A stretch of 18,006 nucleotides of DNA from Candidatus Hodarchaeum mangrovi. GTDB taxonomy: Archaea; Asgardarchaeota; Heimdallarchaeia; Hodarchaeales; Hodarchaeaceae. The DNA is taken from the NCBI GenBank assembly GCA_016839515.1, contig JAEOUE010000081.1:1-18006 (forward strand). Reading direction: 5' to 3'. Shown here one piece after another: positions 745 to 18,006 of the stretch (position 1 is its first letter; every line of letters starts with the position of its first letter). The notes beneath the pieces were generated by a model that worked only from the letters and a program-made list of their open reading frames with translations, ran no database searches and was not told where the DNA came from. A program made the position numbers and the translations under genes.

Positions 745-810
745 CTTTTATTTAATAAGATAAAGCTATAGAACTAAGATTAATATAAAAAGCCATATAA
801 TACTAAAAGG

Positions 811-3009: not shown

Positions 3010-3010
3010 T

Positions 3011-3046
3011 GATTTATTTTTTTAGAAGCCATTTTTTGTCTTTTTA
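3011..3046 (+). terminator. Putative oligo-T archaeal terminator after the MutS gene
   Basis: Three T-tracts (T7, T6, T5) immediately follow the TAA at 3009, ahead of the convergent tRNA. Confidence 0.45.
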
Positions 3047-3052
3047 AAGTAG

Positions 3053-3126
3053 TGGGCCGGACCAGATTTGAACTGGCGACCTATTGCGTGTGAGGCAATT
3101 GTCATACCGGGCTAGACCACCGGCCC
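3053..3126 (-). tRNA. tRNA-Val: tRNA-Val(CAC), intronless, CCA not encoded
   Basis: Reverse complement reads GGGCCGG-TG-GTCTAGCCCGGTATGAC-A-ATTGC-CTCACAC-GCAAT-AGGTC-GCCAG-TTCAAAT-CTGGT-CCGGCCC-A: 7-bp acceptor stem, anticodon CAC, archaeal-type TTCAAAT T-loop, discriminator A. Confidence 0.97.
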
Positions 3127-3274
3127 TTGTTTATAAAAGAATCCTCTGTCGATCAAACGCTATTAAAAATCTCTGAGTTTTAATTCTTCTGGAATCGGAT
3201 TATTTTTTACCAGATTAGTTTCTCAAACATTCTTTAATATAGATTGTTAATTCTTGGTTTGTTCCTAATAGATG

Positions 3275-3991
3275 TTATTTTTTATATGCTGGAACAACCT
3301 CAAGAATTAATTGTTCTTGGAGAATATTTATAACTTCTATTGTTTCCGACTCTTCTATAAGGACTTTTGATCGTGCTTTCCAAATTGCTCCTGCTATTTT
3401 GACATTTCCGATTTTGTCTGGTTCAATAGTTGATGTTACTTTTCCGAATTTCCCAATAATGTCTGAAGCCTCCCCTACTATTGGGGGAATTTGTTGAGTT
3501 TTCCTAATCCGTGTCCAAATTAAAATAAAGAAGACACTTATAGATCCAAATCCATAAGCAATCCCTCTTAAGGGATCTTGCCATAAAATCTCTCCACCGA
3601 CTAATCCAATTAAGAATAATCCTAAAAGTACTGGAATAAAAGGTACGATAATACTTAAATCCCCTCCTTGTGATGTAAAAAAGCCCGAAATAATAATGAA
3701 TATAATTATAATCAATGGCCATGTGAATATTTGTGTTTCTGATGATTGAGAGACAAAATCACCTCCGAGGATGAGGGTAATTGAGATGATCAAAATTATA
3801 GGTAACCAGTTTATTACTTCTACTCCTCCTCCTCCAATTAACCACAATAAAATCAGTATAAATATAGATATCCCAAATATTATAAGGCCTAAATCATATA
3901 AAGGCGATAAATTAAGAAATGATCCAATAAAGGTAAGAATAAGACCTAGAATAATCCCTGAAATTGCAAATTCCTGTAATTCTGATGACAT
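3275..3991 (-). CDS. NfeD-family membrane protein (multi-TM region plus C-terminal OB-fold), no protease domain
   Basis: About 6-7 hydrophobic segments, then GKFGKVTSTIEPDKIGNVKIAGAIWKARS...IEVI...LEV, typical of the NfeD C-terminal domain. Confidence 0.85.
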   Translation of the reverse strand: MSSELQEFAISGIILGLILTFIGSFLNLSPLYDLGLIIFGISIFILILLWLIGGGGVEVINWLPIILIISITLILGGDFVSQSSETQIFTWPLIIIIFIIISGFFTSQGGDLSIIVPFIPVLLGLFLIGLVGGEILWQDPLRGIAYGFGSISVFFILIWTRIRKTQQIPPIVGEASDIIGKFGKVTSTIEPDKIGNVKIAGAIWKARSKVLIEESETIEVINILQEQLILEVVPAYKK

Positions 3992-4020
3992 TTAATTTCA
4001 CTTTTTCTACTAATATATTT

Positions 4021-4032
4021 ATCTTTAAAGAT
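4021..4032. promoter_or_regulatory. Palindromic TATA-like element ATCTTTAAAGAT in the divergent nfeD/beta-CASP intergenic region
   Basis: Perfect 12-bp palindrome about 30 nt upstream of the nfeD ATG. The same ATCTTTAW core occurs upstream of hsp20 and the CBS-HPF gene. Confidence 0.4.
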
Positions 4033-4236
4033 TTTTACAAATTGGAACCAATGACTGGAACAATCATATATTTGATTTGATTTTTTTTTATTAAAGCCAC
4101 AAATTAGAACATAAATTAATGAACCAAAAATTTTTCTAATAATTGCAAGGATTATTTTTACTTTAAATCAATAATTTATAACCTAAATAGAAAAAATACA
4201 AATTTCGATAATAATATTGCAGCTTAATTGATAAAA

Positions 4237-5616
4237 ATGCTTGAAATTCGATTTTTTGGCGCTTCGGAATCTATCGGAAAATCATGTGTAATGATTTCTG
4301 ATTATGATAGACAAGTGATTCTCGATGCAGGAATTCAATTACACCCTCGAAGAACTGGTCTTCTTTCCACTGGTCCTAGTCATGTTGATGATTATGCTTC
4401 TGAAACTACTGCAGTTATATTATCTCATGCCCATGTAGATCATTCAGCATATATTCCTGCACTTTATCGTGCAGGATATAACGGTTTAACACACCTGACC
4501 TATCCAACGAAAGATTTAGTAAATATACTTTGGAAAGATCATTTAAAAATTGAAGGGTCAAACCATTTTAATTATTCAAACCTTAAAACAGCAATGCGTA
4601 AAATGAAACAGCATGATTATTCAAAAAAATTCAAGATTGATAATGGAGTCACCTGTGAGCTTTTAGATGCAAGTCATATCCTAGGTAGCGCATGTATTTT
4701 GTTAGATTGGGAGGGGACTAGGATTTTGTATTCAGGTGATTTCAATAATGCAAAGACACCATTTCATGATCCAATAGTTTTCCCCGACCCTGAGGAGCCA
4801 ATTGATATTTTGTTGATTGAAACAACTAATGCAAATCGAAAAATAAACAGTAGAAAAGAAATGACCTCACAATTAACAAAATCGCTTTTAAAATGTTACA
4901 GTCGTGGAGGTAAGGCCATAATTCCTTCTTTTGCTTTGGGAAGATCTCAAGAAATACAATCTTATTTATCTAGTGATTTTGATTCATTTCTAAGGAAATT
5001 TCCAGTGTATATTGATGGAATGATTCTTGAAATGAATTCAGTTTATAATAAATATTTAGATGAAAAATGGGTGTCTCCTAGAGTTTTATTGGATCTAAAG
5101 GAAAAAGGATTTCGTTCACCTTTTGAACATGAAGGAATTCGCTCCATCGATGAGGTTCCTACTTCTGGAGGTAGAATGAAGAAAAGAGAAATGCTTTCTA
5201 ACCAAGAAAATTCAAGTATAATCCTCACAACTTCTGGCATGCTGGAAGGAGGTCCTGTTTACGATTATTTACGTTTGAACGGCTCTGACCAGAAAAATGG
5301 TCTATACATTGTTGGGTACCAAGTTTTAGGAACCATAGGCTCTGATGTAATTTCTGGACAGACTGATTTAGTGTTAATTGATCATCTTGGGAAACCATTT
5401 CGCGTAAATCTTTCACTTGAAGTCCAACAATTTGAGTTTTCAGGGCATTCATCTTTAGAAGGTTTGATTCAAATGGTTAGATATACTTCAGCAAGTAAAG
5501 TATTCGCGATGCATGGAGAACCCGAATCGCAGGAAAAGTTTTCTTCTTCTATAACTAATATTGAAACTGACATTAATATTTTGTCCTCACACGAAATTTT
5601 ACCCCAATATCCTTAA
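4237..5616 (+). CDS. CPSF73-type metallo-beta-lactamase beta-CASP ribonuclease without N-terminal KH domains (aCPSF1b/aCPSF2-like)
   Basis: Motifs LSHAHVDH, HILGS, YSGDF, IETT, PSFALGRSQE, TTSGMLEGG, VGYQ..GT.G, FSGH and MHGE (motif C His, RNA-type). ATG 4237 preferred over TTG 4228. Confidence 0.92.
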   Translation: MLEIRFFGASESIGKSCVMISDYDRQVILDAGIQLHPRRTGLLSTGPSHVDDYASETTAVILSHAHVDHSAYIPALYRAGYNGLTHLTYPTKDLVNILWKDHLKIEGSNHFNYSNLKTAMRKMKQHDYSKKFKIDNGVTCELLDASHILGSACILLDWEGTRILYSGDFNNAKTPFHDPIVFPDPEEPIDILLIETTNANRKINSRKEMTSQLTKSLLKCYSRGGKAIIPSFALGRSQEIQSYLSSDFDSFLRKFPVYIDGMILEMNSVYNKYLDEKWVSPRVLLDLKEKGFRSPFEHEGIRSIDEVPTSGGRMKKREMLSNQENSSIILTTSGMLEGGPVYDYLRLNGSDQKNGLYIVGYQVLGTIGSDVISGQTDLVLIDHLGKPFRVNLSLEVQQFEFSGHSSLEGLIQMVRYTSASKVFAMHGEPESQEKFSSSITNIETDINILSSHEILPQYP

Positions 5617-5652
5617 ATTTAACTTTAATAGAAAAATAAATGAGGATTATCT

Positions 5653-6075
5653 GTGAGTCTCAAAATAAAACTTAGTTCTTTATCACAAAATGAGATTAAT
5701 TCAATTTTAATGGTTGAAGATGATATAGAAGAAGTAGCTTTGTTATTTGGAGTTAGAGATAACAATTTGATTTTTATACGAAATGTAAAGCATGTATCAA
5801 ACATTGACAATTCTTCTACTAGTTTCTCTATTAGTCCATTTGAACTAATTCAAGAGATTAAATCATTTGAATCAATGGGAGAGGAGTTAATTGGGTTTTT
5901 TCATACTCATCCTCTGGGATCTCAACTATACCCATCAAAAAAAGATATTTCCTTTATGTATAATTGGCCATATCCTTATATTTGGATTATTGGTGGAATT
6001 TGGGCTTTAGAGAAAATGAGAATATTCACTTTAAAAGAAAATAATGTCGTAGAGTTAGAATATTCACTTGAATGA
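5653..6075 (+). CDS. JAB1/MPN/Mov34 (JAMM/MPN+) metalloprotease, desampylase/deubiquitinase-like
   Basis: EEVALLFG Glu motif and GFFHTHPLGSQLYPSKKD JAMM motif. GTG start with GAGGA at 5642-5646. Confidence 0.9.
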   Translation: MSLKIKLSSLSQNEINSILMVEDDIEEVALLFGVRDNNLIFIRNVKHVSNIDNSSTSFSISPFELIQEIKSFESMGEELIGFFHTHPLGSQLYPSKKDISFMYNWPYPYIWIIGGIWALEKMRIFTLKENNVVELEYSLE

Positions 6076-6088
6076 TCAATTGTCATCC

Positions 6089-7114
6089 TTAGAGAATGAT
6101 TGGAATATCTGTTCCACACGATTGACATAGGCCATCAAGACTAAGTCCTACTATTTCCGTATGGTATCCTTCCCTTATAATCAATGGATTATTACAAATA
6201 TGGCAAAAAGTATTGGAACCTAGGGGAGTTCGAACATTTCCGAGGTATATATAATTTAAACCAACATCTTTAGCAATTTTATATGCTTTTTCGAGTGTAT
6301 TTAAAGGAGTCAATGGTAAATTAAGGAGTTTATAGTCAGGATGAAAGCGAGAAAAATGGATTGGTGTGTTTGGGCCTAAATTTTCAAATATCCAAGTACA
6401 CAGTTCTTCAATCATCATATCCGAATCATTTTTTGTTGGAATAATTAAATTCGTAATTTCTAAATGCACATTTAACTCTTTAAAAATGGAACATGTGGTT
6501 AAAATTGCTTTCCAATTTGTGGCTCCACAAATTTCTTTGTAAAACTCATCGGAAAATCCTTTAATATCGATATTAGCTGCATCAAGTAACGGGCCTAATT
6601 TTAAGGCTAGATCCTTATTTATATACCCATTGTCAACTACAACCATCTTCAAATTTTTCTCATCAGCTAAATTCGCTATATCTCTAATGTACTCAAATGC
6701 TATCATAGGTTCATTATAGGTGGATGCAATGGAAGGAACCTTTTTTGACTGAGCAATTTTTATGATATCGCTTGGATCCTTTTTTTGTAATCTTGATACA
6801 GATCTTTCCATTGAAATGGAGTAATTCTGACAGTTCAAACACTCCATGTTACATCCATGAGAACCGAATGATAATATTCCAGTTCCAGGAAGAAAATGAT
6901 AAAGGGGCTTTTTTTCAATGGGATCGACTGCTAGAGATGATATTAACCCATAAGTTCTAGGTTTTATCTCACCATTTTGATTCCACCGTGCACCACACCA
7001 GCCAATCTCATTTTCTAATAAGGCACAATACCTAGGACATACAAGACATTGTGATTTTCCTGATTTTAGTTTTTTATAAAATAACCAGTCTTCTGAAGTT
7101 AATTTAAATTCCAT
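6089..7114 (-). CDS. amrS: AmmeMemoRadiSam system radical SAM enzyme
   Basis: N-terminal CLVCPRYC...GWCGAR, DPIEKKPLYHFLPG, CNMECLNC (CxxxCxxC), TYNEP, NIDIKGF, HFSRFHPDY, YIYLGNV and two C-terminal CxxC pairs. Confidence 0.93.
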   Translation of the reverse strand: MEFKLTSEDWLFYKKLKSGKSQCLVCPRYCALLENEIGWCGARWNQNGEIKPRTYGLISSLAVDPIEKKPLYHFLPGTGILSFGSHGCNMECLNCQNYSISMERSVSRLQKKDPSDIIKIAQSKKVPSIASTYNEPMIAFEYIRDIANLADEKNLKMVVVDNGYINKDLALKLGPLLDAANIDIKGFSDEFYKEICGATNWKAILTTCSIFKELNVHLEITNLIIPTKNDSDMMIEELCTWIFENLGPNTPIHFSRFHPDYKLLNLPLTPLNTLEKAYKIAKDVGLNYIYLGNVRTPLGSNTFCHICNNPLIIREGYHTEIVGLSLDGLCQSCGTDIPIIL

Positions 7115-7146
7115 TTTTTTCCCTAATTAATTTATAAAATTAATTT

Positions 7147-7881
7147 TTATCTTATTGTTATTTGGTTTGTGTTTTCATCTTGATCAAGCAATCCTTTTTC
7201 TGTCATTCGCCCCAAGGTTCGTGTGATTATAACTGGAGATATGTGATCTTTTAAAGCTTCTTTTAGCCCATCTATGGAAGTTCTACCAAGATGCATAACT
7301 ATAGCTAAGATGTCTACTTCTGGTATGTCTTCAGCTGATTCTTCTAATAAATACGAAATAACGGAATTTGCTTCTTTTAACTCGTTAATTTCAACACGAA
7401 GCCTTGTAGTTATTTCTTTTTTCTCCTCTAATTCTTGATTGAGTTTTTTCTCGAATTCAGAATTTTCTTGAGTTAATGAAGAAACACGGGTTCTTTTTTT
7501 CGATATTTTTGTATTTATTAATTCATTTTCAGAAAGACTTTGTTTCATTTTTTCTTCTATTTCTTGTAATTGAAATTTTTTTTCTTCTATTTGATTTTTC
7601 TTTTGATTTATTTCTTCTAATGTTACATTTCTTTTGGTAATTATATCATCTTTCGAATTGGCGAGTGTACTGATTTCTTCTTGATGCGAAGCTATCTTTA
7701 CTTCCTGTTCTGTGATCTGATTATCAACTGTTTCTTTTTCTTTGATTAAAGTTTCCAAGTAGTCTCTAGATTCACGAAATTCTTGTGCTCTTGAAAATAT
7801 AAGTTGTTTTATATCATCTGCCAACCGATCTAACGATTCACCACTTCTAATGAATTTTTCACGTATCGTATCAGTATCCAT
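7147..7881 (-). CDS. Uncharacterised long coiled-coil protein with C-terminal winged-helix domain (paralog B)
   Basis: About 170 aa of E/K/Q/L/I-rich heptads, then PEVDILAIVMHLGRTSIDGLKEAL...IITRTLGRMTEKGLLDQDENTNQITI (wHTH pattern). GGAGG SD at 7891-7895 on the minus strand. Confidence 0.8.
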   Translation of the reverse strand: MDTDTIREKFIRSGESLDRLADDIKQLIFSRAQEFRESRDYLETLIKEKETVDNQITEQEVKIASHQEEISTLANSKDDIITKRNVTLEEINQKKNQIEEKKFQLQEIEEKMKQSLSENELINTKISKKRTRVSSLTQENSEFEKKLNQELEEKKEITTRLRVEINELKEANSVISYLLEESAEDIPEVDILAIVMHLGRTSIDGLKEALKDHISPVIITRTLGRMTEKGLLDQDENTNQITIR

Positions 7882-7885
7882 TGAA

Positions 7886-8650
7886 TTAAACCTCCAACTT
7901 AAAAAGATCGATTTTAGTCAATATGGTAATTTCATCTTTCGCTTCATTAAAATCAAGTACTTTTCGTTTTTCTAGTCCACTTAAAACCCTTTTCAAAGTA
8001 GTTTCATCAATACCTAAAGCTGCCTTTATTTCTGTAAGTTTTGAGGTTGAACTTGGTTTCATCGCTAAAAATTTAATTAATCCTACCTCAGGGCTTTGAA
8101 TGTAATCTTTTCGACAAAGAATACGAATGGCTTCAAATTTATTAGTGATTAAATTCTTTTCATTTGTAAGTTTTTCAAATTCTTGAGTTACTAATTTCAT
8201 TCTAGCCTCGTATTTAGGCCTTAATTCGTTATTAATAGTTTCAATCATTGTTAAATCTTTTTCCAAGGATTTTAAAGTTTCATTTAAACCATTATTTTCT
8301 TTAATCAGTGTTTCAAGATCAGTTTTATTTTTAGTTAATTTCGTTTGGAGAGAAGAATTTTCTGTATTAACATTATCTAGTTCCTTCTGTAAATTTTCTT
8401 TTTCTTTTTGAATCTGATCAATTTCAATTTTGAATGTCTCAAGATCATTTGTCAGATCCGAAATTTCTCGTGTATATTCATTTAATTGTTGACGCCGTTT
8501 CCCGATATAATTTTTTAAATTGTCAATATCATTAATAAGAGACTTTAAATCTTCTCTAATTAGTTGTAAGCGTCCTGTGAATTTTGGTATTAATTCTTCA
8601 AGACTTAGTTCAAGTTTTCGAATTTCTTCTGCTGATTTTGGCGTACTCAT
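7886..8650 (-). CDS. Uncharacterised long coiled-coil protein with C-terminal winged-helix domain (paralog A)
   Basis: About 170 aa of heptad repeats, then PEVGLIKFL...SKLTEIKAALGIDETTLKRVLSGLEKRKVLDFNEAKDEITI (wHTH). ATG 8650 (MSTPK) has an upstream GAGAGG and is preferred over 8698. Confidence 0.8.
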   Translation of the reverse strand: MSTPKSAEEIRKLELSLEELIPKFTGRLQLIREDLKSLINDIDNLKNYIGKRRQQLNEYTREISDLTNDLETFKIEIDQIQKEKENLQKELDNVNTENSSLQTKLTKNKTDLETLIKENNGLNETLKSLEKDLTMIETINNELRPKYEARMKLVTQEFEKLTNEKNLITNKFEAIRILCRKDYIQSPEVGLIKFLAMKPSSTSKLTEIKAALGIDETTLKRVLSGLEKRKVLDFNEAKDEITILTKIDLFKLEV

Positions 8651-8721
8651 TAATAATCGTCCTCTCAGAACAATAATGACTATACCTTTAAAAAACATTT
8701 TTGATTTAAAAAGGATATTTA

Positions 8722-8790
8722 GGGAAAAGAAAATTTATATACTAGTTATGAATAATTATATTTGATGTGTATAAAATCTTTAAGTTTAAA
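8722..8790 (+). promoter_or_regulatory. Candidate BRE/TATA promoter(s) of the hsp20 operon
   Basis: Purine-rich GGGAAAAGAAAA followed by TTTATATA (8734-8741), and a second AAAATCTTTAAG element (8773-8784). Confidence 0.45.
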
Positions 8791-8845
8791 AATAGAACGC
8801 ATTTAGCTTTTATTAGATTGATTTTAAAGGATAGTGAATTAAAAG

Positions 8846-9469
8846 TTGTCTGATCCAAATAAAGATGAATATGATGAGGATGATAATTTTCCTAGAAGGC
8901 GGAGACGTCGTGACGAAAGCCCATTCGATGATATTATGAATTATTTCATGAATCAATTCGGAGGAGCTTTTAATTTCGAAAATATATTTGAAAATATGGA
9001 CTATTTTCTTGAGGATCTTTTCAGAAGGTTTAGTGTTTCTGGACCTTTTAGCGATGGTTCTGAATTTCCAGGATTTGTCTGGGGTTTTAGGATGACTAAA
9101 GGACCAGATGGAAGACCTCATATTGAACGGTTTGGTAACACTCCTAGGAAAATTCAAGGATCTGCTGTTCATCCATCTGATGAAAGAGAACCTTTAGTCG
9201 ATGTATTAGAAGATACAAGCGTTCTTCGTGTTATCGCTGAAATTCCAGGCGTAACAAAGCAAGATATCGATCTTTCTGCAACTGAAAATAGTCTTCTAAT
9301 TCAAGCTGAATCAGAAGATGGAAAACGTAAGTACTACAAGGAGCTTGATCTTCCTTGCATAGTGATGCCTGATACTGCCACAGCAAAATTCAAGAACGGG
9401 GTTCTTGAAGTAGAATTGACAAAAAAGCATTGTGATGAAAAAAAGGGTAAGAAAGTGGATATTTATTAA
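8846..9469 (+). CDS. hsp20: Archaeal small heat shock protein Hsp20 (alpha-crystallin domain)
   Basis: GFRMTKGPDGRPHIERFGN, REPLVDV, VIAEIPGV.K.DI, YYKELDLP, ATAKFKNGVLEV and a C-terminal VDI (IxI-type) motif. TTG start with an in-frame TAA just upstream. Confidence 0.95.
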   Translation: MSDPNKDEYDEDDNFPRRRRRRDESPFDDIMNYFMNQFGGAFNFENIFENMDYFLEDLFRRFSVSGPFSDGSEFPGFVWGFRMTKGPDGRPHIERFGNTPRKIQGSAVHPSDEREPLVDVLEDTSVLRVIAEIPGVTKQDIDLSATENSLLIQAESEDGKRKYYKELDLPCIVMPDTATAKFKNGVLEVELTKKHCDEKKGKKVDIY

Positions 9470-9519
9470 ATAAAAGAATTTTTTTGGATAAGAAAATCAG
9501 ATTCACTTGGTGTAGTTTT

Positions 9520-10308
9520 ATGTATTTGGAAACATTAACAGATGAAATAGAAGATTGGATAGAAAAAGCAGAAGAAACAGAGAATCTTCGTTTGATATAC
9601 AAAGGAGAAACAAATCATTTAAAGGGAGCCATTGCAATCGAATTACTAGGATATTATGGTTCAGTTGATAAGCTTATTACAAAAGAACTACTAAAAGTGA
9701 GTCAAAAATCTCAGAAAATAGCTGGTTTCTTTTCCAATTATTTTAATGAAATGATTGAATTTAGTTTAGGGGAAATTCTCCTTCCAATCTCGGTTTTAAG
9801 TCTAAACATTGGAAATCAACCTTATATATTAACTACAACGAATTTTGCTATCCCAGATATCATATGTTATCGATTATCCGAAGAATTATTTTCTTTTTAT
9901 CAACAGTTGAATGTTTCCAAAATATTATTGATTGATGGGGTCTATTCTAGGCATCGATCATTACATCAACTTCCAAAAGTTCATAGAATCATCTCCAACG
10001 ACTTTAAGATTCATATGATATCTAAAGAGAAATCTAATTTTTCCATGATGGGTCAAATTGCCAGCTCATTTCTTACCTATCGGAGTCAAATACCAAATAT
10101 TCCTTTAGAAATAGTTGCTGTGGAATCTTTTGCTGAATATGATCCAATATCAGCTTATGAACTCCTTAAATTTTTAAATCAAGAATTTAATATCGATAAT
10201 GGATTAGAATACATCAAAGAATTAGCTGATGATTATAAAAGAGAGATAAATGCTGTTTATGAAGAAGAAAAAGAAGAAGAAAACCCCGAAAAATTCTTTT
10301 TCACTTAG
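9520..10308 (+). CDS. Divergent PAC2-family proteasome assembly chaperone-like protein (PbaA/PbaB-like)
   Basis: LLGYYGSVDKLITKELL resembles the family GxxGxVxxIxxxxL helix. VSKILLIDG strand, YDPISAYELLKFL motif, and an acidic tail ending FFT. ATG 9520 with upstream GGTG preferred over TTG 9484. Confidence 0.65.
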   Translation: MYLETLTDEIEDWIEKAEETENLRLIYKGETNHLKGAIAIELLGYYGSVDKLITKELLKVSQKSQKIAGFFSNYFNEMIEFSLGEILLPISVLSLNIGNQPYILTTTNFAIPDIICYRLSEELFSFYQQLNVSKILLIDGVYSRHRSLHQLPKVHRIISNDFKIHMISKEKSNFSMMGQIASSFLTYRSQIPNIPLEIVAVESFAEYDPISAYELLKFLNQEFNIDNGLEYIKELADDYKREINAVYEEEKEEENPEKFFFT

Positions 10309-10319
10309 GAGATAATAGA

Positions 10320-10886
10320 ATGAGCGATAACCCAATTTCAGAATTAGAATTAATATTAAAAATTTTAACATATACTATTGAAACCAAAGGAATCGTTACA
10401 ATAGAGGAAATCGATGAAATTCTTCATCTCTTATCAAACCGAACCCGTAGAAGAATGCTATCGGAATTAGCAACAGGTGAAGGGTTTGTAAATGAATTAG
10501 TAAAAAGATTAGATGATCATCCTCAATCAATTACTCGACATTTAGAGGTTTTGAAAAAAAGTAAATTAATAACTGGACAAGAAAGACCAGGAATAGGTCG
10601 AAGAGGAAGACCTCGGCTTTATTATGCATTATTTCCAGATCTTGCAGAAATTATAACTAGAAAGCCTTCTTCTATATCAGAATCTAATGAACAATATATT
10701 TGTAGCAGTTTTCCTAGATTAAACGCAATAAAAAATCAATTAGAAGGTCGAATAACTCATAATGGACAAAAGAAAATGATTTCTGAAGTACAAAACATAA
10801 AAAAGGAACATGAAAATGCCCTAGAATTATGTAGCAGTATTCTTTCTCAATTAAATAAAAAAGTGACCAAGATACCCATTGAATAG
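10320..10886 (+). CDS. ArsR-type winged-helix transcriptional regulator, Phr/HSR1-like heat-shock regulator
   Basis: LSNRTRRRMLSEL..GFVNEL....SITRHLEVLKKSKLI....RGRPRLYY pattern and a helical C-terminus. AGGAG SD overlaps the upstream stop. Co-oriented with hsp20. Confidence 0.85.
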   Translation: MSDNPISELELILKILTYTIETKGIVTIEEIDEILHLLSNRTRRRMLSELATGEGFVNELVKRLDDHPQSITRHLEVLKKSKLITGQERPGIGRRGRPRLYYALFPDLAEIITRKPSSISESNEQYICSSFPRLNAIKNQLEGRITHNGQKKMISEVQNIKKEHENALELCSSILSQLNKKVTKIPIE

Positions 10887-10945
10887 GGGAATGGAGAGTA
10901 TAAACAGTTTCTATTCAAAATCATAAATATCAAAGAAAAATTTAT

Positions 10946-13177
10946 TTGTATTTTGATAAAGAAAAAGCGTGTGAAACGTTTATAGAATTCTTAGTTGTAT
11001 TAAAAAAAGTCGGAAATACCTCATTAAGAGGTATTATTGCTTCAGATGATGTGAATTTATTCAAACAAGAGGATTCGATATTAAAATCGTTTATAAGACT
11101 AAAATCAATTTCCCAAGATGAATCTTTCCAAATTCTTGGTCAATCTTTTGATCTAGTATTATTGGATTTTAGAAGAGTTTTTAATCCCAATAAAATATGT
11201 CAATTCATTGAAACAGTTAGAGGTGGAGGACTAATTTTTATAATAGGATCTAAGTATCCAGAGTGGTTATCACAAGTAAATAAAGGTAAATTCTCTCAAT
11301 ATTCAACAATAAATCCTTCTAATATAAATGATGAGTGTAAAGACAAATCTTATTTATTAAAATGGTTTATTACTAGTCTATTAGAAAAATTTCAATTTAA
11401 GTGCGATTTCACAGATGCTAATGAAATTTTTCAATCTTTTAATCTCATGCCTTATGAATATAAACTTGATCAATACTTTAACGATATTTTAGTTTCTAAA
11501 GATCAGAAGGAAATTTTAGATGAGTTCCAAACAAAGTTACCTAAGTCTCTAAATCGAAATATATGCATCATTATAACAGCAGACCGAGGAAGAGGCAAAT
11601 CAACACTAATTGGTCTAGCCTTGGCAAATTTCTTGATAAATACACCCAAAAAACGCTTAAATATCGTTATAACTGCTCCAGATATAAGAAACACACAAAC
11701 AATATTTGAAATGATTACTCATTACTGCTCAGTAAAAGGAGTTCATTTTTCATCGAAAAAAAAAGACGATTGGATTTTTGAAGTTAAAATAGGTTTAAAG
11801 GGAAAAGTAGGATTCGTTAATTCAAGTAATCTTGGGAATATTAAGAAATTAGATCTGTTAGTTATAGAAGAAGCTGCAACATTACCAGTAGACTCACTTA
11901 AATCCCTTTTTAAGCAAAAAGTCCCTAAAATTATGGTTAGTACTGTACATGGATATGAAGGAAGTGGGAGGAGTTTTCAAATCAAGATAACAAACCCTCT
12001 AAAGCGTCAGAAACAGATAAATTATAATCAATACACTCTTAAGCAACCAATTAGGTATTTAGAGGATGATAAAGTAGAAAATTTTCTTAATTATGTCTTT
12101 TTTTTAGATGCTGAACCTCCCCTTATTAATAAAGAAATTTTAACAAAGATAAAGAATGATTTTTCGTTAACTCAATATCCTGAAGTAGGAAAGCATTTAA
12201 TAGAGAGCAATTATCAAGTTTTACATGATCATATAGGAATTTTAGTATATTCACACTACAGAAATCAACCAAATGATCTTTTAGTGCTATGTGATTCTAT
12301 TAATCATTTTTTAGTAGGATTCAATTTAGTAAACAATGAAAATACTCACTTTCTTCTTGTATCAACTCAGTTCTCTCAGGAAGGAAGTATGAATGATAAT
12401 GTAATCGATTATGTTGAATCGGGAAAATTCATTGAAGGAAATTTGATTCCTACAGTAGCAATAAGACATTTTTCGAGAGATTTTGCCAGATTGAAAGGTT
12501 TAAGAATTGTTAGGATTGCTGTCCATCCCGAATTTATAAATCAGGGGTATGGCCGAAAAGCAATCGAATTGATTTTAGATTATTTTTATCAATTCGATTG
12601 GATAGGAGTGAGTTTTGGAGCAAATGTAAAGTTGGTTAAATTTTGGAGAAAATTTGGTTTTTATTCAGTTCATCTCAGACCGATCAAAACTCCTGAGACT
12701 GGTGAATGGAACCTTATTATGATAAGACCACAATCTAATCAATCCGAAGAAATCATAAACCAAGCATCCCGTGATTTCATTTTACAATTCATTGAACTTT
12801 TAAAACAATCTCTCCACTCGATGTCTTATGAATTAGTTCAAGAAATATTAAAATCTTGCTCATCCTACCCACAATATAAACCATTTATTTCTCATAGTGG
12901 AAAATTACGGGTTGAAAATTATTTAACAGGAAAAATTAACTTTTTATTAGCAGTAGATGTTATGTATGAGCTCTCCAAAACATATTTTATATGTCAAAAT
13001 TTTCCTAGGTTGAGTTCTGCTCAAGAAGGATTGTTAATAAGTCGAGTACTTCAGGGGAGGTCATGGGGACAAACACGAGGAAAATCAGGTTTAGATTGGG
13101 AAACATCGCATACATTAATGAGAAAGGCGATTCAAAAATTGTATAATGAAATATTTAGAGTTTTAAGCATCGAATGA
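10946..13177 (+). CDS. tmcA: tRNA/RNA cytidine N4-acetyltransferase TmcA/Nat10 (helicase plus GNAT)
   Basis: ETVRGGGL, TADRGRGKST, STVHGYEGSGRSF, PIRY..DD.VE, HYRNQPNDL, GNLIP, RIVRIAVHP...QGYG, GVSFGA, FW.K.GF and PETGE. Confidence 0.95.
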   Translation: MYFDKEKACETFIEFLVVLKKVGNTSLRGIIASDDVNLFKQEDSILKSFIRLKSISQDESFQILGQSFDLVLLDFRRVFNPNKICQFIETVRGGGLIFIIGSKYPEWLSQVNKGKFSQYSTINPSNINDECKDKSYLLKWFITSLLEKFQFKCDFTDANEIFQSFNLMPYEYKLDQYFNDILVSKDQKEILDEFQTKLPKSLNRNICIIITADRGRGKSTLIGLALANFLINTPKKRLNIVITAPDIRNTQTIFEMITHYCSVKGVHFSSKKKDDWIFEVKIGLKGKVGFVNSSNLGNIKKLDLLVIEEAATLPVDSLKSLFKQKVPKIMVSTVHGYEGSGRSFQIKITNPLKRQKQINYNQYTLKQPIRYLEDDKVENFLNYVFFLDAEPPLINKEILTKIKNDFSLTQYPEVGKHLIESNYQVLHDHIGILVYSHYRNQPNDLLVLCDSINHFLVGFNLVNNENTHFLLVSTQFSQEGSMNDNVIDYVESGKFIEGNLIPTVAIRHFSRDFARLKGLRIVRIAVHPEFINQGYGRKAIELILDYFYQFDWIGVSFGANVKLVKFWRKFGFYSVHLRPIKTPETGEWNLIMIRPQSNQSEEIINQASRDFILQFIELLKQSLHSMSYELVQEILKSCSSYPQYKPFISHSGKLRVENYLTGKINFLLAVDVMYELSKTYFICQNFPRLSSAQEGLLISRVLQGRSWGQTRGKSGLDWETSHTLMRKAIQKLYNEIFRVLSIE

Positions 13178-13417
13178 TGATTTTCTAATTGAGTTCTGAA
13201 ATCCTCGTGCTTTGTGTTTATCAATCTGAATTACACAACAAACTGTGGTAAAAGAACATGCGCCGATCGGTGAATAGCGAACATCCTTTAAACAATATAA
13301 TAGCGATCCTTTATTACAGGTACAAATCGTGAGATCATGAGAACTAGCAAAGGAATCATATATTTTTTGTTTTGGGGGCTTCGTCAATTCATTAAAAAAA
13401 GATTGCCAGTTTGACAT
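13163..13417 (-). CDS. Small cysteine-rich hypothetical protein (84 aa)
   Basis: ORF MSNWQSFF... with 6 Cys (CTC, C, C, CC). GTGAT SD-like motif upstream of ATG 13417. Overlaps the tmcA 3' end by 15 nt. Confidence 0.45.
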   Translation of the reverse strand: MSNWQSFFNELTKPPKQKIYDSFASSHDLTICTCNKGSLLYCLKDVRYSPIGACSFTTVCCVIQIDKHKARGFQNSIRKSSFDA

Positions 13418-13905
13418 ATTTATCACAATCAAGCTTGAATATTCTTCAAACATCGAATGTTATTGTATCTAATTTTATGGCAATTAATAGTGAGATAATA
13501 TCTAGAACATATCCTATGAATATCATGTAGATAATATTCCTGAAATTTTAATCATTTCAAATGAAAATTTATAATGCCGTTAATTCCTGTGGTGAATTTT
13601 TATAAAATATCTTCTCTAAATACAATACTTTACGAAAATTTCAATTTTTAATCCTTAAAAATATTATAGTGTTAGTTCTTAACAGGAATATGAATAATAA
13701 AGACAAAGTACTAATTTTAAATGCCTTTGAAGCTGAATATAAGAATAAGAACTTTCCTAAAAATCATGTTTTAAAAACATCCCATATCTAATTAATTCAT
13801 TGCTTCTGGAATCAAAAAATACAAATTTCAAAAATCCAATAAAGGATATAGTTAGTTGGCATTTGTGAAAAAAATCTATTATTTAAAACCTGTAGATGAT
13901 GTCTT

Positions 13906-15216
13906 ATGAACGCTACAGATTTGGTATTACTCCTTATTGTCATTGGAATTATAATTATTATAATCATATCTTCTCGTTCTTCTTCTTCTGGGAAAAAACT
14001 TAGAAAAGGTTCCCAATTAGAGCGAAGAGGACAATTTTTAGAAGCTTTGGACTACTATGCCAAAGTCTCACTTGACCAAGCAATTAAATTGGTATTAAGA
14101 ACCCCAGAAGCTTCTCAAATTTTAGCACTTAGAAGATTAGAAAAAAAATTTCATCCTAGGACAATAGAACAGGCATTTATTCGATTAGCCCGTACTTTAA
14201 TAAATAATAATGATATAAATGCTGCTGCAATGGCATATATTCTTGCAAACAAACCATTTGCTGCTTCCAAAGTCTTTATCGATAATGGCGGATTAGAATA
14301 TGTTCCTAGATCTGTACAGATAATTGACCAATATCCCTCATTGATACATGATAGAAATCAAGCAATCAGAAATCTCGCTCGACATGCATATAATACAAGA
14401 AAGTTCCAAGAAGCGGCAGAACTTTTACGTACAATAGGAGCTAATGAAGAAGCCAATACAGTTTTAATAGCAGCTACGACTGAAATGAGGAAGCAAGGAA
14501 TGGACAAAGAAGCTGAAAATTATATAAGTCGTGCAGGCCAACCAAATATTGCTGTCCAACATTATCTAGAGGAAGTTAAGAAAGAGCTAAATGATGGAAA
14601 TATAGAGAAAATGCGTCGATCCTTGAATTATGCGCGAAATATTACAGAAAAACTTTCAAACGTTAAGAAAAATAATGATGAATCTTTAAACGATCTAATA
14701 AGTCAAGTTAATGAATATGATCGTCTTTTGAAAACTTTGGATTCTGCTCGAGACATTTTACGAAGACATCAGACGAATCAGGCCGTTGCACTTTATGATG
14801 AACTTTTAGAAGGTCTTGGATCAGATGTACCTGCTTCTATCCTTGCAGAAGCCGCTTTGGCTAATGAAAAAGAAAATCCTAGAATTGCAGCTGAATTGTA
14901 CAGGCAAGCATCTGGAAAAGCAAGTTCTTCTAGAGCTGCTCAATCGTTTAATTTAAGAGCAAAAAAATTGGAAATTCTTTTAGAAACACCAACAAAATCA
15001 CAACAGATAATTGTAGAAAATATTGAAGCAGATGTACAAGAATCATGTATTGTTTGCAGAGCGATAATAAACAATCGTGAATCGCTTGTTAGATGTCCTG
15101 AATGTGGATCTCCTGCTCATTATGCACATCTGGCAGAATGGTTGAAAATTCGTGGGGTTTGTCCAATCTGTAAGAAGAGAGTAAAGCTAAATAGACCCGA
15201 AAAATTAAGATTTTAA
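13906..15216 (+). CDS. Membrane-anchored alpha-solenoid (TPR/clathrin-repeat-like) protein with C-terminal RING finger, putative E3 ligase
   Basis: N-terminal TM helix LVLLLIVIGIIIIIII, a Ser linker and basic residues. Ala-rich helical repeats follow (AAMAYILANKPFAASKVF, FQEAAELL...EEA, QAVALYDEL, AAELYRQA). RING CIVC-x12-CPEC-x4-HYAH-LAEW-x6-CPIC at 15046-15171. Confidence 0.85.
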   Translation: MNATDLVLLLIVIGIIIIIIISSRSSSSGKKLRKGSQLERRGQFLEALDYYAKVSLDQAIKLVLRTPEASQILALRRLEKKFHPRTIEQAFIRLARTLINNNDINAAAMAYILANKPFAASKVFIDNGGLEYVPRSVQIIDQYPSLIHDRNQAIRNLARHAYNTRKFQEAAELLRTIGANEEANTVLIAATTEMRKQGMDKEAENYISRAGQPNIAVQHYLEEVKKELNDGNIEKMRRSLNYARNITEKLSNVKKNNDESLNDLISQVNEYDRLLKTLDSARDILRRHQTNQAVALYDELLEGLGSDVPASILAEAALANEKENPRIAAELYRQASGKASSSRAAQSFNLRAKKLEILLETPTKSQQIIVENIEADVQESCIVCRAIINNRESLVRCPECGSPAHYAHLAEWLKIRGVCPICKKRVKLNRPEKLRF

Positions 15217-15322
15217 TTTCTCAAATATATTTTCAGTTTGAGTATAAAGTTATTATATCTTTATAAATTTAAACATTTACAGAAAATCTTCTGATTGCGA
15301 ACTTTGTTTAGGAGTATAAATA

Positions 15323-16486
15323 ATGAATTTTCATAAGACTCTTCAAATAAAAATTATTGAATTACCTCGACTTGACCGAAATCAACAACTAGCTAAAGCC
15401 ATTTCTCTTCTTAAGGAAGGATATGAAGTGGTTCTTATCCAAAATGAAGAAAAAAAATATGAGGGAATAATACGGACTCATGATGTTATAGGTAAAGGGA
15501 TAAATCCAGCTGCCTCCTGTAAGACCTATATGAATAAAACTGTCCCATCGATATTAAAAGAAGAACTGATCTCCGTTGAGCAAGTAGGGAATTATATGCT
15601 TGAAGGGAAATCAAGATTTATTCCTGTGTTAGATGAACAATTGAGGATTCTCGGTGCAATAAAGGATACACAGATATTAGAGAAAATGAGGTTAAAATTT
15701 GATCAATTTTTAGAGAATTCGTTAGAAAATGTAGTTAATTGGGATTTAAAAACATTAAAATCATCCGATACAATTGGGAATGCCATAGCAAAGATGAGAG
15801 AGTTTGGTTTTAGTCGAATACCAATTTTAGATGAACAATCTGAATTGCAAGGAATAGTAATGAATAGATCTTTACTTAAGACACAAATTGAAAAAAAAAC
15901 TACTTCTGGTGATTTTGGAGGAAAAGAGAAAGATTGGCATCTTTTACCTGTAGGAGATTTCGTTTCCGAGACAGAGACCATAAAGATAAATACTGGAATA
16001 TTAGAAGTCTATGATCGGATTGTTAATTCAAATGAACATACTTTAATAGTAGATGATCAAACTAGATACGGGATAATTACAGCACTTGATTTAATTAAAT
16101 TTCTGCTTACATCAGAGAAGGGGATATCTGACTACATAATCAACATCCTTCAGGCTCCTGATGATGAAGTCCAGTCCCATGCGATTAGAAAGACACAAGC
16201 TCTGTTAAATCGTGAAAAACGTTTATTAGGAACTAGTGGAACTGTAAAAATTCGTTTTAAAAGGAATATGTCACAATCAAAAAGGGGTCAATATTCTATT
16301 ACTGCAACAATTCAATTGATATCTGACAATGGGCATAATTTTAGTAGTGAAGCTACAGATTTTGGAGCTGAAAAAGCTGTAAATAAAGCACTTGATAATA
16401 TATCAAGAATAATTTCTAATTCTAAAAAAAGAGCATTAGAACAGAGATTAAAGAGTAAAAGCTTAAGAAAATTGACCGAACTTTAA
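15323..16486 (+). CDS. Four-CBS-domain protein fused to a C-terminal HPF/RaiA-like domain (archaeal Hib-type ribosome hibernation factor)
   Basis: CBS signatures YEGIIRTHDV, RFIPVLDE...LGAI, SRIPILDE...LQGIV and YGIITALDL. C-terminal beta-alpha-beta-beta-beta-alpha segment ending FSSEATDFGAEKAVNKALDNISRII..SKKR. AGGAG SD at 15310-15314. Confidence 0.8.
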   Translation: MNFHKTLQIKIIELPRLDRNQQLAKAISLLKEGYEVVLIQNEEKKYEGIIRTHDVIGKGINPAASCKTYMNKTVPSILKEELISVEQVGNYMLEGKSRFIPVLDEQLRILGAIKDTQILEKMRLKFDQFLENSLENVVNWDLKTLKSSDTIGNAIAKMREFGFSRIPILDEQSELQGIVMNRSLLKTQIEKKTTSGDFGGKEKDWHLLPVGDFVSETETIKINTGILEVYDRIVNSNEHTLIVDDQTRYGIITALDLIKFLLTSEKGISDYIINILQAPDDEVQSHAIRKTQALLNREKRLLGTSGTVKIRFKRNMSQSKRGQYSITATIQLISDNGHNFSSEATDFGAEKAVNKALDNISRIISNSKKRALEQRLKSKSLRKLTEL

Positions 16487-16492
16487 TAATCT

Positions 16493-17158
16493 TTATTTTG
16501 GGGATTTGGTATAAAATTTTCTCGCATATTCAAGTCGTTGAATTGCAGAAATGTTAGAAATTATACCAATTAAGAGCACAATTAATGCTAAGACACCAAA
16601 ATTAAATGTCCATACCTCTTGAAGAAAATTTTCAATAAAAATAGCTTCTACCAAGCATCCAACAGCTAGAAGGGTCAATTTTTCTTTTCTTTCAAAAATC
16701 CCAGTTGTTGAGTCCATTTTCAGACCTCCTCTGTTTTCTGCGGTAGACCGAACATAACTTGCCAGTATCATCCCCTCAAAACATATAAAAACCCACTCGG
16801 GGTATACATATCCTCCTATCATAATTCCAAGTAGGAAAAAAAATTCGGAAACTCTATCTAATGTCCGATCTAGGAGTGCACCATAATAACCCGCTGTTCC
16901 CAAAGCACGTGCTAAGCTACCATCAAGCATATCGAGCAAAGAAGAGAAGCCTAAGAAGATAGTTCCAATAATTAAGGCTTGGGGAATTCCAATGATCTGG
17001 CTTAGAGAAAAAGCAATACAGCTGAAAAAACTAATAAAAACACTTAAAACAGAGACTATATTAGGGGTCAGTCCAGTTTTAGCTAATAATTTACCAACTG
17101 GTGCAAAGAAATTTTCATAACGATTTCGAAGTTTTTTTGGTGTTGTTGAGTTCTCCAT
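16493..17158 (-). CDS. pgsA: CDP-alcohol phosphatidyltransferase, likely archaetidylinositol phosphate synthase
   Basis: LTPNIVS, signature DMLDGSLAR...YGALLDRTLDR, SYVRSTAE, GIFERKE and several TM helices. Confidence 0.9.
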   Translation of the reverse strand: MENSTTPKKLRNRYENFFAPVGKLLAKTGLTPNIVSVLSVFISFFSCIAFSLSQIIGIPQALIIGTIFLGFSSLLDMLDGSLARALGTAGYYGALLDRTLDRVSEFFFLLGIMIGGYVYPEWVFICFEGMILASYVRSTAENRGGLKMDSTTGIFERKEKLTLLAVGCLVEAIFIENFLQEVWTFNFGVLALIVLLIGIISNISAIQRLEYARKFYTKSPK

Positions 17159-17340
17159 TCTTGGTACACTCTACTTTACTGCCGTTTTATGTGTTCTAAA
17201 GGCTATTCAATATCCAAAATAAATCTTTTGAATATATATTACTTGAAAATTATTAAAAAAAGGTTTTTCCCTAGCAACCTTCTAGGATGAATTGACTCTC
17301 AAAATTTCAACCAAGAATATTTAGGTTAAGGATTTTCTAT

Positions 17341-18006
17341 ATGACATTTCTTGAGCAAGTATTTACAGAAATAATAAGAAAATTCGATCCTGAAACAAGG
17401 TTTGGATTAATGTACAGTGGAGGACTTGATTCCTCAATTATTGCAAAAATTTTATTGAAAACCGTGAAATCAGATTTTATTAGCTTTATAACTGTTGGTG
17501 CGGAAAGAAGTTATGATTTAATAAACGCAAAAAAAGGAGCAGAAAAGCTTGGAATTGAATTGAAAACATGTATATTAACACATAATAAGGTAAGAGATAG
17601 TATAAAGGATTTAAAGAAATTTAAATACATTCAGACTCCCAAGGATCTAAGTATTGCAATTCCCTTATATTTAGGGTTGAGGAAACTTGTTAAAGAAAAT
17701 TTTGCTAGGAATATATTTCTAGGTCAAGGAGCTGATGAATTATTTGGTGGTTATAATCGATACGAATTATTATTTAAAAAAAAATTAGAGAAACAGATCA
17801 AACAACAGATGAAATTTGATTTAAGCACTTTAAGATCAAATCAATTAAAAATGGAGAAAGAAATAGCAAATAATGTTGAAGTTGATTTAATTTATCCTTA
17901 TTTAGATGAACAATTGATTGAATATGCACAAAGGCTACCTTATAATAAATTATTACGAGAAAATGAATTTGGCAAAATAATTCGAAAGGTTTACCTTCGT
18001 GAAGTA
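17341..18006 (+). CDS. Asparagine synthase C-terminal (PP-loop ATP pyrophosphatase) domain protein, 3' partial; absent from the ORF track
   Basis: Translated by hand from ATG 17341: MTFLEQV...LMYSGGLDSSIIA...LGQGADELFGGY.RY...YPYLD...LP..K...RKVYLREV, open to the window end. In-frame TGA at 17293-17295. Confidence 0.9.
   Translation, partial: MTFLEQVFTEIIRKFDPETRFGLMYSGGLDSSIIAKILLKTVKSDFISFITVGAERSYDLINAKKGAEKLGIELKTCILTHNKVRDSIKDLKKFKYIQTPKDLSIAIPLYLGLRKLVKENFARNIFLGQGADELFGGYNRYELLFKKKLEKQIKQQMKFDLSTLRSNQLKMEKEIANNVEVDLIYPYLDEQLIEYAQRLPYNKLLRENEFGKIIRKVYLREV

Follow-up and report, generated by a model that had tools for sequence, protein, structure and literature searches.

A conserved membrane-anchored alpha-solenoid protein with a C-terminal RING finger in Hodarchaeales: a candidate ubiquitin ligase with likeness to the IFT-A arms

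We analyzed an 18,006-nt stretch of DNA from the Asgard archaeon Candidatus Hodarchaeum mangrovi (assembly GCA_016839515.1, contig JAEOUE010000081.1, positions 1 to 18,006; hereafter the window) and found that an open reading frame (ORF) with an ATG start at positions 13906..15216 of its plus strand (436 codons, followed by a stop codon at 15214-15216) encodes a 436-aa protein composed of a single N-terminal transmembrane (TM) helix, an alpha-solenoid and a C-terminal RING finger. This TM-solenoid-RING protein is a solid candidate for a conserved membrane E3 ubiquitin ligase, and its link to the solenoid-RING module of eukaryotic coat-like proteins is moderately supported. An earlier interpretation made from the letters alone (the sequence-only reading) had described the same layout and had proposed a membrane-bound ubiquitin ligase or scaffold that may relate to protocoatomer solenoids. 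What it observed was confirmed, while what it concluded was partly supported.

Architecture and conservation of the protein

The predicted TM helix spans residues 6-22 (13921..13971; this and all other features of the gene are on the plus strand). Its hydropathy (Kyte-Doolittle, 19 residues) reached a maximum of 3.23, all 11 segments scoring above 1.6 start at residues 1-11, the region is helical in the AlphaFold2 model, and homologues keep a hydrophobic N-terminus. A basic juxtamembrane stretch follows (residues 23-42, 13972..14031). While the N-terminal flank MNATD has a charge of -1, residues 23-45 have a net charge of +6 (7 K/R), so that by the positive-inside rule the body of the protein would be cytoplasmic and the whole a type-III (N-out, C-in) membrane protein.

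In the AlphaFold2 model obtained from an alignment of 52 sequences (mean predicted local distance difference test score, pLDDT, of 86.3), a long N-terminal helix is followed by 18 helices within residues 44-360 (14035..14985), which form an alpha-solenoid with a fold resembling tetratricopeptide repeats (TPRs) and with fold matches at Z 9-12; a model of the solenoid alone had a pLDDT of 86.9. The Ala content of residues 36-362 is 12.8%, as compared to 2.6-6.8% in six neighboring proteins of the window, which has 31% G+C. After the solenoid comes a variable linker (residues 361-376, 14986..15033), disordered in the model at residues 362-376, where the pLDDT is <50, and unconserved in the alignment columns; the chain then ends in a small strand-strand-helix zinc-finger unit, the RING finger (residues 377-425, 15034..15180). 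No strand occurs before residue 394 in the model, and a beta-propeller is thus absent. The single TM helix with basic residues after it, the Ala-rich helical body of ~330 aa and the overall order of TM helix, alpha-solenoid and C-terminal RING had all been noted in the sequence-only reading, and they were borne out by the hydropathy and charge, by the model and by the invariant RING ligands described below. In contrast, the AxxAY/AAEL..A motifs that it took for sequence repeats were not recovered as such: hhalign of the N-terminal half of the solenoid against the C-terminal half gave a probability of 0.3%, and the repetition is structural only.

A word-indexed search returned 75 homologues with 34-99% identity, and since all are similar in length (295-447 aa), the architecture is more than a chance combination. 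Where names are given, these are proteins from Hodarchaeales, Heimdallarchaeota or 'Promethearchaeota' metagenome-assembled genomes, mostly annotated as 'hypothetical' and in a few cases as 'E3 ubiquitin protein ligase' or 'TPR repeat protein'. An exhaustive phmmer search of 1.84 billion representatives gave 623 matches at E<=0.001, comprising ~17 full-length clusters and, for the rest, matches to the RING alone; a Heimdallarchaeota LC_3 protein and an 'Asgard group' protein are among the distant full-length members (23-36% identity). We then surveyed 301 genomes of the phylum, own genome included. Within the genus, 20 of 21 genomes (own included) have the full-length gene, whole in 18 and split at contig ends in 2. 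Full-length forms were also found in families f2, f7 and f22, elsewhere the RING part alone matched, and the count for family f11 was 0/76. One member of the genus (G220; 1.4 Mb in one contig, 71% complete) has no full-length copy, giving a RING-level match (1e-13) only, and it is also without an E2 gene that 30/31 relatives carry, which may reflect either incompleteness or real loss.

Members of a short sister family (~290-380 aa) start with a TM helix and end in the same RING, and between these have a single helical module flanked by two spacers, the first of which is basic and of low complexity. Comparison of the long and short families using hhalign gave a probability of 100% (E 8.9e-42) over residues 82-195, and because the match covers this part of the solenoid, the conserved functional unit appears to be the TM helix, one core module and the RING. 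We place the core module at approximately residues 82-209 (14149..14532) on the basis of this comparison and of the similarity to the TPR arms of intraflagellar transport complex A (IFT-A) discussed below; the module contains L157, E172, L174, A179, V186 and A190, which are invariant in the family.

Predicted ubiquitin ligase function and its alternatives

The RING finger is a C4H2C2 variant with the pattern C-x2-C-x12-C-x2-C-x4-H-x2-H-x10-C-x2-C. Its zinc ligands (C381, C384, C397, C400, H405, H408, C419 and C422), which include all six Cys of the protein, show cross-brace spacing and are invariant in 52/52 aligned homologues. Positions that contact the E2 are kept as well, namely V383 in 51/52, W412 in 52/52, P420 in 52/52 and K/R423 in 47/52 homologues. 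The last of these, which follows the final Cys, we take to be the 'linchpin' basic residue. The other three correspond to the loop-1 Ile/Leu/Val, the helix aromatic and the loop-2 Pro given as E2-binding positions of RING and U-box domains in the available part of a published account (PMC13290226). At E<=0.01, zf-RING_2 matches 52/52 members of the family and Prok-RING_1 matches 50/52 (best 1.7e-6).

Profile searches were made against 177,635 PDB sequences, with 60 matches listed, down to E ~0.9-1. Profile A1, built from the 52 close members, matched solved RING-H2 ligases, with Arkadia at 2.7e-6, RNF165 at 2.6e-5, RNF24 at 5.7e-5 and RNF38 at 3.8e-4, followed by weaker matches to RLIM, EL5, gp78, RNF13 and Hrd1. 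Judged by sequence, the RING is closest to those of active eukaryotic RING-H2 ligases among the matches listed. Over ~55 aligned residues (E 2.7e-6 to 6e-3), Arkadia/RNF111, RNF165, RNF38, RNF24, RNF13, plant ATL/EL5, Hrd1 and gp78 share with the archaeal RING the loop-1 hydrophobic residue, the helix Trp, the CPxC motif and the basic residue after it, and several of them (RNF24, RNF13, ATL/EL5, Hrd1 and gp78) are likewise TM-anchored with a cytoplasmic RING. They differ in that their ligands are C3H2C3 rather than C4H2C2, in that the substrate arm of the archaeal protein would be a 320-residue solenoid, and in the archaeal host.

The variant ligand arrangement recurs in the same genome. Three other RING genes carry the same motif, one of them being the small RING of the ubiquitin operon on contig C153 (CxxC..CxxCx4HxxH..W..CPxC), which matches the TM-solenoid-RING protein at a BLASTP E of 4e-8 over 32 residues. 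Whereas the operon RINGs are soluble proteins of ~100 aa encoded beside E1, E2 and ubiquitin, the TM-solenoid-RING protein, with 436 aa, is membrane-anchored, includes a solenoid and has its gene at another place in the genome. Contig C225 (1061-2038, plus strand) encodes a second RING protein associated with the membrane, a 326-aa frame with a hydrophobic N-terminal region; it has the same C4H2C2 RING without the solenoid core module.

The sequence-only reading relied on Asgard archaea having a ubiquitin system, and this genome does encode one, with 5 matches to E2, 3 to ubiquitin and 5 to ThiF/E1, as well as Vps28, UEV and two copies of Snf7. Most prominent is a cluster on contig C153 (~11783-28003) that holds two Snf7 genes, Vps28, a UEV/E2-like gene, Rab-like GTPases, a ThiF-type E1, ubiquitin, the small RING and an E2. 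The ubiquitin encoded there ends in GG-KR, and the E2 (156 aa, with an H-x-N...C motif) is present in 30/31 relatives. Further E1/E2 pairs were found on contigs C304, C138 and C139. Since the ubiquitin, E1 and E2 genes are all present, on contigs other than that of the TM-solenoid-RING gene, the lack of a ubiquitin system cannot be held against a ligase. Cascades of the archaeal and Asgard operon type are reported to be active in vitro (10.1101/2023.07.25.550441; PMC5654768), the first of these studies describing Asgard E1/E2/RING cascades and their ubiquitination of UEV-Vps23 in vitro.

These features suggest, with modest confidence, that the protein is a membrane-bound RING-type ubiquitin ligase consisting of an anchored helix, a substrate-binding solenoid and an E2-recruiting RING. 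Beyond the architecture itself, we infer the following course. The N-terminal helix would hold the protein in the membrane, leaving its body on the cytoplasmic side; the solenoid, and chiefly its core at ~82-209, would hold a substrate or partner at the membrane; the RING, on its flexible linker, would recruit a charged E2 supplied by the E1, E2 and ubiquitin genes of the genome; and ubiquitin would then be passed on, with either the bound protein or the ligase as its acceptor. [quoted passage not shown] Regardless of its descent, a membrane-anchored E3 of this kind would be the component by which the ubiquitin system of Asgard archaea is coupled to membrane proteins and the ubiquitin-binding ESCRT machinery. 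A related joining of parts is known from CHIP/STUB1, in which a TPR arm for substrates or chaperones is joined to a RING-like domain that recruits the E2; CHIP differs in being soluble and in having three TPRs and a zinc-free U-box, and it gave no match in any of our searches.

Several observations weigh against a ligase. The hmmscan score of the single protein for zf-RING_2 was 22.9 bits, below the cut-off of 27.3, although a six-frame search of the genome gave 27.5 bits, just above it; for Prok-RING_1 (PF14446) the score was 24.5 as compared to a cut-off of 29.1 bits, and the match was confined to positions 3-32 of the 54 in the profile. Compared with canonical RING-H2, the ligands are atypical, as the fourth is Cys, the sixth is His and ligands 4 and 5 are separated by four residues. 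The gene is located not beside the ubiquitin genes but in a housekeeping block (PAC2, helix-turn-helix (HTH), TmcA and CDP-alcohol transferase). Moreover, the RINGs that end IFT-A, GATOR2 and HOPS subunits largely serve assembly, so a RING related to them need not be catalytic.

One may therefore ask whether the protein is instead a non-catalytic membrane scaffold or tether, in which the RING would be a zinc-stabilized module for assembly or for binding ubiquitin, as it is in IFT-A, IFT172, GATOR2 or HOPS, and the solenoid would build an oligomeric complex at the membrane without ubiquitin transfer. Among the non-RING proteins matched, it is closest in sequence to IFT-A subunits, in which the terminal zinc fingers lie at interfaces between subunits. 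A position outside the ubiquitin operon would fit this role, as would the behavior of the U-box-like domain that ends IFT172, which, according to the part of the source available, binds ubiquitin and conjugates it only weakly in vitro (PMC13290226). However, in the archaeal RING, unlike in the tail of WDR19, the eight ligands and the E2-contact residues are all retained (47-52 of 52 homologues), and its sequence is nearest to those of catalytically active RING-H2 ligases. We thus regard a pure scaffold as unlikely.

The bacterial protein LapB/YciM offers a different analogy, as it shares the N-terminal TM helix, the cytoplasmic TPRs and the C-terminal zinc domain, although the likeness is one of layout only. 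LapB acts as an adaptor that hands a membrane-associated enzyme to a membrane protease, and by analogy a TM-anchored TPR and zinc-domain protein could deliver an enzyme, for example of lipid synthesis, to such a protease independently of ubiquitin. Besides the layout, LapB structures were among the Foldseek matches of the whole model (4zlh and 9up5 at 1.1e-4, 7t6d at 1.8e-4; 1.8e-3 to 2.3e-3 with the solenoid alone), and a gene for a CDP-alcohol phosphatidyltransferase adjoins the RING gene, in convergent orientation, in 18/22 related loci. Nevertheless, no LapB chain occurs among the profile-search matches listed (to E ~1), the adjacency carries little weight given the synteny of the housekeeping genes, and the protein ends in a two-zinc RING in which E2-contact residues are kept, whereas LapB ends in a one-zinc, rubredoxin-like finger. 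An adaptor of this kind is very improbable, and the ubiquitin ligase is the function that we favor.

Likeness of the solenoid to the IFT-A arms

The origin of the solenoids found in coat, tether and ciliary-transport proteins, and whether it was archaeal, is an open question of eukaryogenesis, to which the Asgard links have so far been mostly at the level of fold. The family described here belongs to the archaeal class nearest to eukaryotes, and combines a solenoid core that matches IFT-A arms in sequence with a complete E3-type RING. IFT-A subunits (IFT121/WDR35, IFT122, IFT140 and IFT144/WDR19) are coatomer-like proteins of WD40-TPR-zinc-finger layout, and the archaeal core resembles the first part of their TPR arm, with profile-to-sequence E values of 6e-8 to 4.7e-4, while arm and terminal zinc finger align collinearly.

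The matches were obtained with profile A4, built from 23 diverse members, with A5, from the 12 most distant, and with A7, from 15 short-family sequences, none of them shared with A4 or A5. Using A4, we found Leishmania IFT122B (E 1.5e-7, profile 88-209 to chain 833-950), human WDR19/IFT144 (2.4e-7, profile 38-231 to chain 850-1028), Chlamydomonas IFT121 (2.1e-5, profile 90-198), human WDR35 (4.6e-5, a single collinear stretch from profile 87-400 to chain 858-1182), Chlamydomonas IFT144 (2e-4) and IFT122 (3.5e-4 and 6.6e-3). All of these lie at residues ~735-1030 of the respective chains, with the zinc finger aligned to the chain C-terminus, as in WDR19, where profile 389-429 falls on the terminal zinc finger at chain 1287-1327. 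The conserved motif ..RNLA.yAy...k..EAaELLr.iGa.eEA..vL aligns to ..yAkyL.....l.EAiELYRKAG...EA..LL of IFT122B and IFT121. No classical TPR protein was among the A4 matches listed (to E ~0.9). With A5, IFT121 matched in one stretch from solenoid to zinc finger (6e-8, profile 91-427 to chain 847-1195), followed by WDR19 (3e-7) and IFT122B (1.8e-6), while the best classical TPR proteins, SRP72 and Tom71, were found at 0.0028 and 0.024. With A7, the sole non-RING match below 0.01 was Chlamydomonas IFT140 (4.7e-4).

Pfam models gave a similar indication in part of the family. P0077 matches TPR_IF140-IFT172 above the cut-off (9.9e-9, 34.8 bits), while TPR_WDR35 matches 8/52 members and TPR_IFT122 2/52. 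The TM-solenoid-RING protein itself matches no classical TPR family at E<=1, and among the members TPR_2 matches 3/52 and TPR_12 2/52. As a control for specificity, we searched the 10,120 ORFs of the own genome with a hidden Markov model (HMM) of the A4 solenoid at E<=10, and it matched its own gene alone. For TPR_12 there are 66 matches in this genome, spread over many frames and none of them in the TM-solenoid-RING gene, and the HMM is thus not promiscuous for TPRs or for host composition. In two other genomes of the Heimdall class, frames of 1668 and 1900 aa (G054:C7:389306-389701 and G235:C445:10007-10474) match TPR_IF140-IFT172 above the cut-off and may be further IFT-like solenoid proteins.

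The fold comparisons were less discriminating. Foldseek with the whole model placed IFT-A subunits at ranks 1-8 (E 1e-6 to 1e-5), with designed TPRs, LapB, OGT and P58IPK behind, but with the solenoid-only model designed TPRs, OGT and IFT-A were intermixed at 8e-5 to 6e-4. VIA-align on the Foldseek candidates gave Z 12.0 for IFT-A, 11.0 for LGN, 10.9 for P58IPK, 10.9 for Tom70 and 11.5 for the alpha-COP C-terminal domain (root-mean-square deviation (rmsd) 4.1 over 147 residues), and a search of the solenoid-only model independent of Foldseek gave 11.2 for P58IPK, 11.2 for IFT-A, 10.9 for Tom70, 10.4 for the Vps4 MIT domain and 9.9 for alpha-COP. By fold the body is a TPR-like solenoid and nothing finer can be said, because all of these values lie within the range that is unspecific for helical repeats. 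The sequence-only reading had called for comparison with clathrin, IFT, Vps11/18 and TPR folds; IFT-A and alpha-COP do match, but in a tie with generic TPRs, and no clathrin or Vps11/18 chain was among the best 50 rows of the fold searches. Three long mid-solenoid helices (residues ~205-288, positions 14518-14769) also superpose on whole MIT domains, which bind ESCRT-III: Vps4 at Z 10.4 (rmsd 2.6 over 79 residues), katanin at 10.3 and MITD1 at 9.8, as well as Vta1, SKD1, NRBF2 and archaeal Vps4. Pfam MIT matches 1/52 family members (0.0065), and the likeness of the models may be no more than a common three-helix shape.

The resemblance noted by eye in the sequence-only reading, clathrin/IFT-like, gained support from sequence in the case of IFT, for which the diverse profiles gave 6e-8 to 2.4e-7 as compared to at least 0.0028 for classical TPRs, and none in that of clathrin, for which no sequence match was listed. 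More broadly, no clathrin, COPI, Vps11/18 or alpha-SNAP chain was among the matches listed in the profile searches. HOPS/CORVET subunits Vps11 and Vps18 and the GATOR2/SEA subunits, to which the layout had also been compared, do have the same order of a solenoid followed by a C-terminal RING; however, there was no solenoid match in sequence, and those to GATOR2/SEA covered the RING only and were insignificant (WDR24 0.63-0.93, WDR59 0.89), while zf-Vps39_C matches 3/52 members at 1.4e-3 or weaker. A relation to protocoatomers, likewise proposed there, gains from the alpha-COP fold match (Z 9.9-11.5, rmsd 4.1 over 144-147 residues in both comparisons), but this is tied with generic TPRs, and neither a propeller nor a clathrin, COPI or Vps sequence match speaks for it.

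We consider it slightly better than an even bet that the solenoid core and terminal zinc finger are specifically related to the TPR and zinc-finger arm of IFT121, IFT122, IFT140 and IFT144, and no better than that, because the cross-matches and misses of the Pfam models and the clusters found by language model weigh against it. The Pfam IFT140/172 TPR model (PF24762) matches 0/21 genomes of the genus and 4/81 of the class, only one of those 4 matches being the family locus; at E<=1 it also matches 4/14 control prokaryotes, and TPR_WDR35 matches 8/14, while neither has a match in the own genome. The language-model look-alikes all scored <0.9 and were generic TPR/SNAP clusters, the leads being one eukaryotic TPR_IF140-IFT172 cluster at 0.85 and 'clathrin/VPS region' clusters at 0.82-0.84. 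Other points tell in the same direction. The narrow profiles A1 and A2 (the latter from 19 Hodarchaeales solenoids) found no solenoid relative, IFT-A included, among the listed PDB-sequence matches; the fold scores tie IFT-A with P58IPK, Tom70, LGN, OGT and designed CTPRs (Z 9-12); and the two N-terminal beta-propellers of IFT-A subunits are absent here, a TM helix standing in their place and the solenoid being half as long. No beta-propeller or WD40 domain was found in the 11 long RING relatives scanned, which have PCI or winged-helix domains instead, and a search with A4 for longer fused relatives (927-2645 aa) gave none at E<=0.001, which is weak evidence given its word prefilter.

Alternatively, the body may be a lineage-specific TPR-like array whose likeness to IFT-A arose by convergence or by shared ancestry of the TPR class, an explanation of kinship alone that would fit either function and that we find somewhat doubtful but well worth keeping in view. 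The non-discriminating fold searches, the narrow profiles and the Pfam IFT models that match control prokaryotes and miss the genus would all be expected if this were the case, and the distant members P0085 and P0088 have TPR_2/TPR_14 matches over the cut-off in their C-terminal halves. The available portion of a recent study of alpha-solenoids also cautions that repeat architectures readily converge (10.64898/2026.10.28.762692). On the other hand, three profiles, one of them from non-overlapping sequences, rank IFT-A first among the non-RING matches, 3-5 orders ahead of classical TPRs; the matches, in four paralogues and four species, occupy equivalent positions and are collinear with the zinc finger at the end of the chain; and the solenoid HMM matches no other TPR protein of its genome.

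If the relationship to IFT-A is one of descent, the family could provide a concrete archaeal starting point for the module of a solenoid and a terminal RING, and would suggest why IFT-A, IFT172, HOPS and GATOR2 subunits end in RING-like domains. Archaea are not known to have a cilium. Van Dam and coworkers in 2013, and Jekely and Arendt in 2006, reportedly derived IFT from a coatomer-like progenitor. The tail of WDR19 is without the two His ligands and the Trp in our alignment, while the archaeal RING is complete and E3-like. IFT121, IFT122 and IFT144 also end in small zinc-finger-like domains, for which a common origin is raised as possible in the part of the source available (PMC13290226), and a solenoid with a complete RING, as found here, would fit as a possible ancestral state. 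A more far-reaching proposal is that the TM-solenoid-RING and short sister families are surviving archaeal relatives of a solenoid and RING module to which eukaryotes added propellers, yielding their coat-like WD40-TPR-zinc-finger proteins (IFT-A, IFT172 and perhaps HOPS/CORVET and GATOR2), and that this module once worked as a ubiquitin ligase at the membrane, an activity of which the zinc fingers and U-box of its descendants are decayed remnants; this we put forward as a tentative and rather unlikely scenario.

We found no description of the family in the literature. The accessible part of PMC11188069 contains no mention of it, and in that of 10.64898/2026.10.28.762692 the alpha-solenoid clusters restricted to Asgard archaea and eukaryotes include 'ciliary TPR proteins' and 'RING-type E3 ligases', so that its supplements may already contain the family. 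New here are the match of the core to IFT-A arms in sequence, its replication with independent profiles, the short sister family that defines the core, and the controls.

Genes around the TM-solenoid-RING gene

The RING gene is part of a block with the order HSP20, PAC2, HTH, TmcA/NAT10, a small ORF (minus strand), the RING gene, a CBS gene, a CDP-alcohol phosphatidyltransferase gene (minus strand) and an Asn-synthase-like gene. Across 22 related loci, the transferase gene is conserved in 18, TmcA in 17 (one copy being a short fragment), PAC2, HTH and the downstream gene in 16 each, and the CBS gene in 2. Because this is synteny among close kin, adjacency within the block is not evidence of functional linkage. 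The upstream run (8846-13177, plus strand) comprises HSP20, a PAC2-family gene (proteasome assembly chaperone-like), an ArsR-type HTH gene and TmcA/NAT10, which brings proteostasis genes near the putative E3. Between the RING and transferase genes, 15323-16486 (plus strand) encodes a protein of 387 aa that has four CBS domains and a tail weakly resembling S30AE/ribosome-hibernation proteins, and that looks like a lineage-specific insertion since it occurs in only 2/22 related loci.

Within 12800-15400, an Rfam scan gave nothing beyond a SNORD121A-like C/D-box match in the AT-rich spacer upstream of the gene (13475-13554, plus strand), which at 22.3 bits, as compared to a gathering threshold of 44, and E 0.66 is probably due to chance. 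The only tRNA in the window is at 3052-3126. For 13100-15400 no RNA sequencing run was listed, and 20 DNA runs from 7 studies contain the stretch. Between TmcA and the RING gene, and divergent from the latter, 13163-13453 (minus strand) encodes a Cys-rich ORF of 96 aa that overlaps the 3' end of TmcA by 15 nt. It matches no Pfam family at E<=0.01, but it is kept in place in 15/22 related loci (tblastn E<=1e-12, 42-51% identity) and is probably a real small gene.

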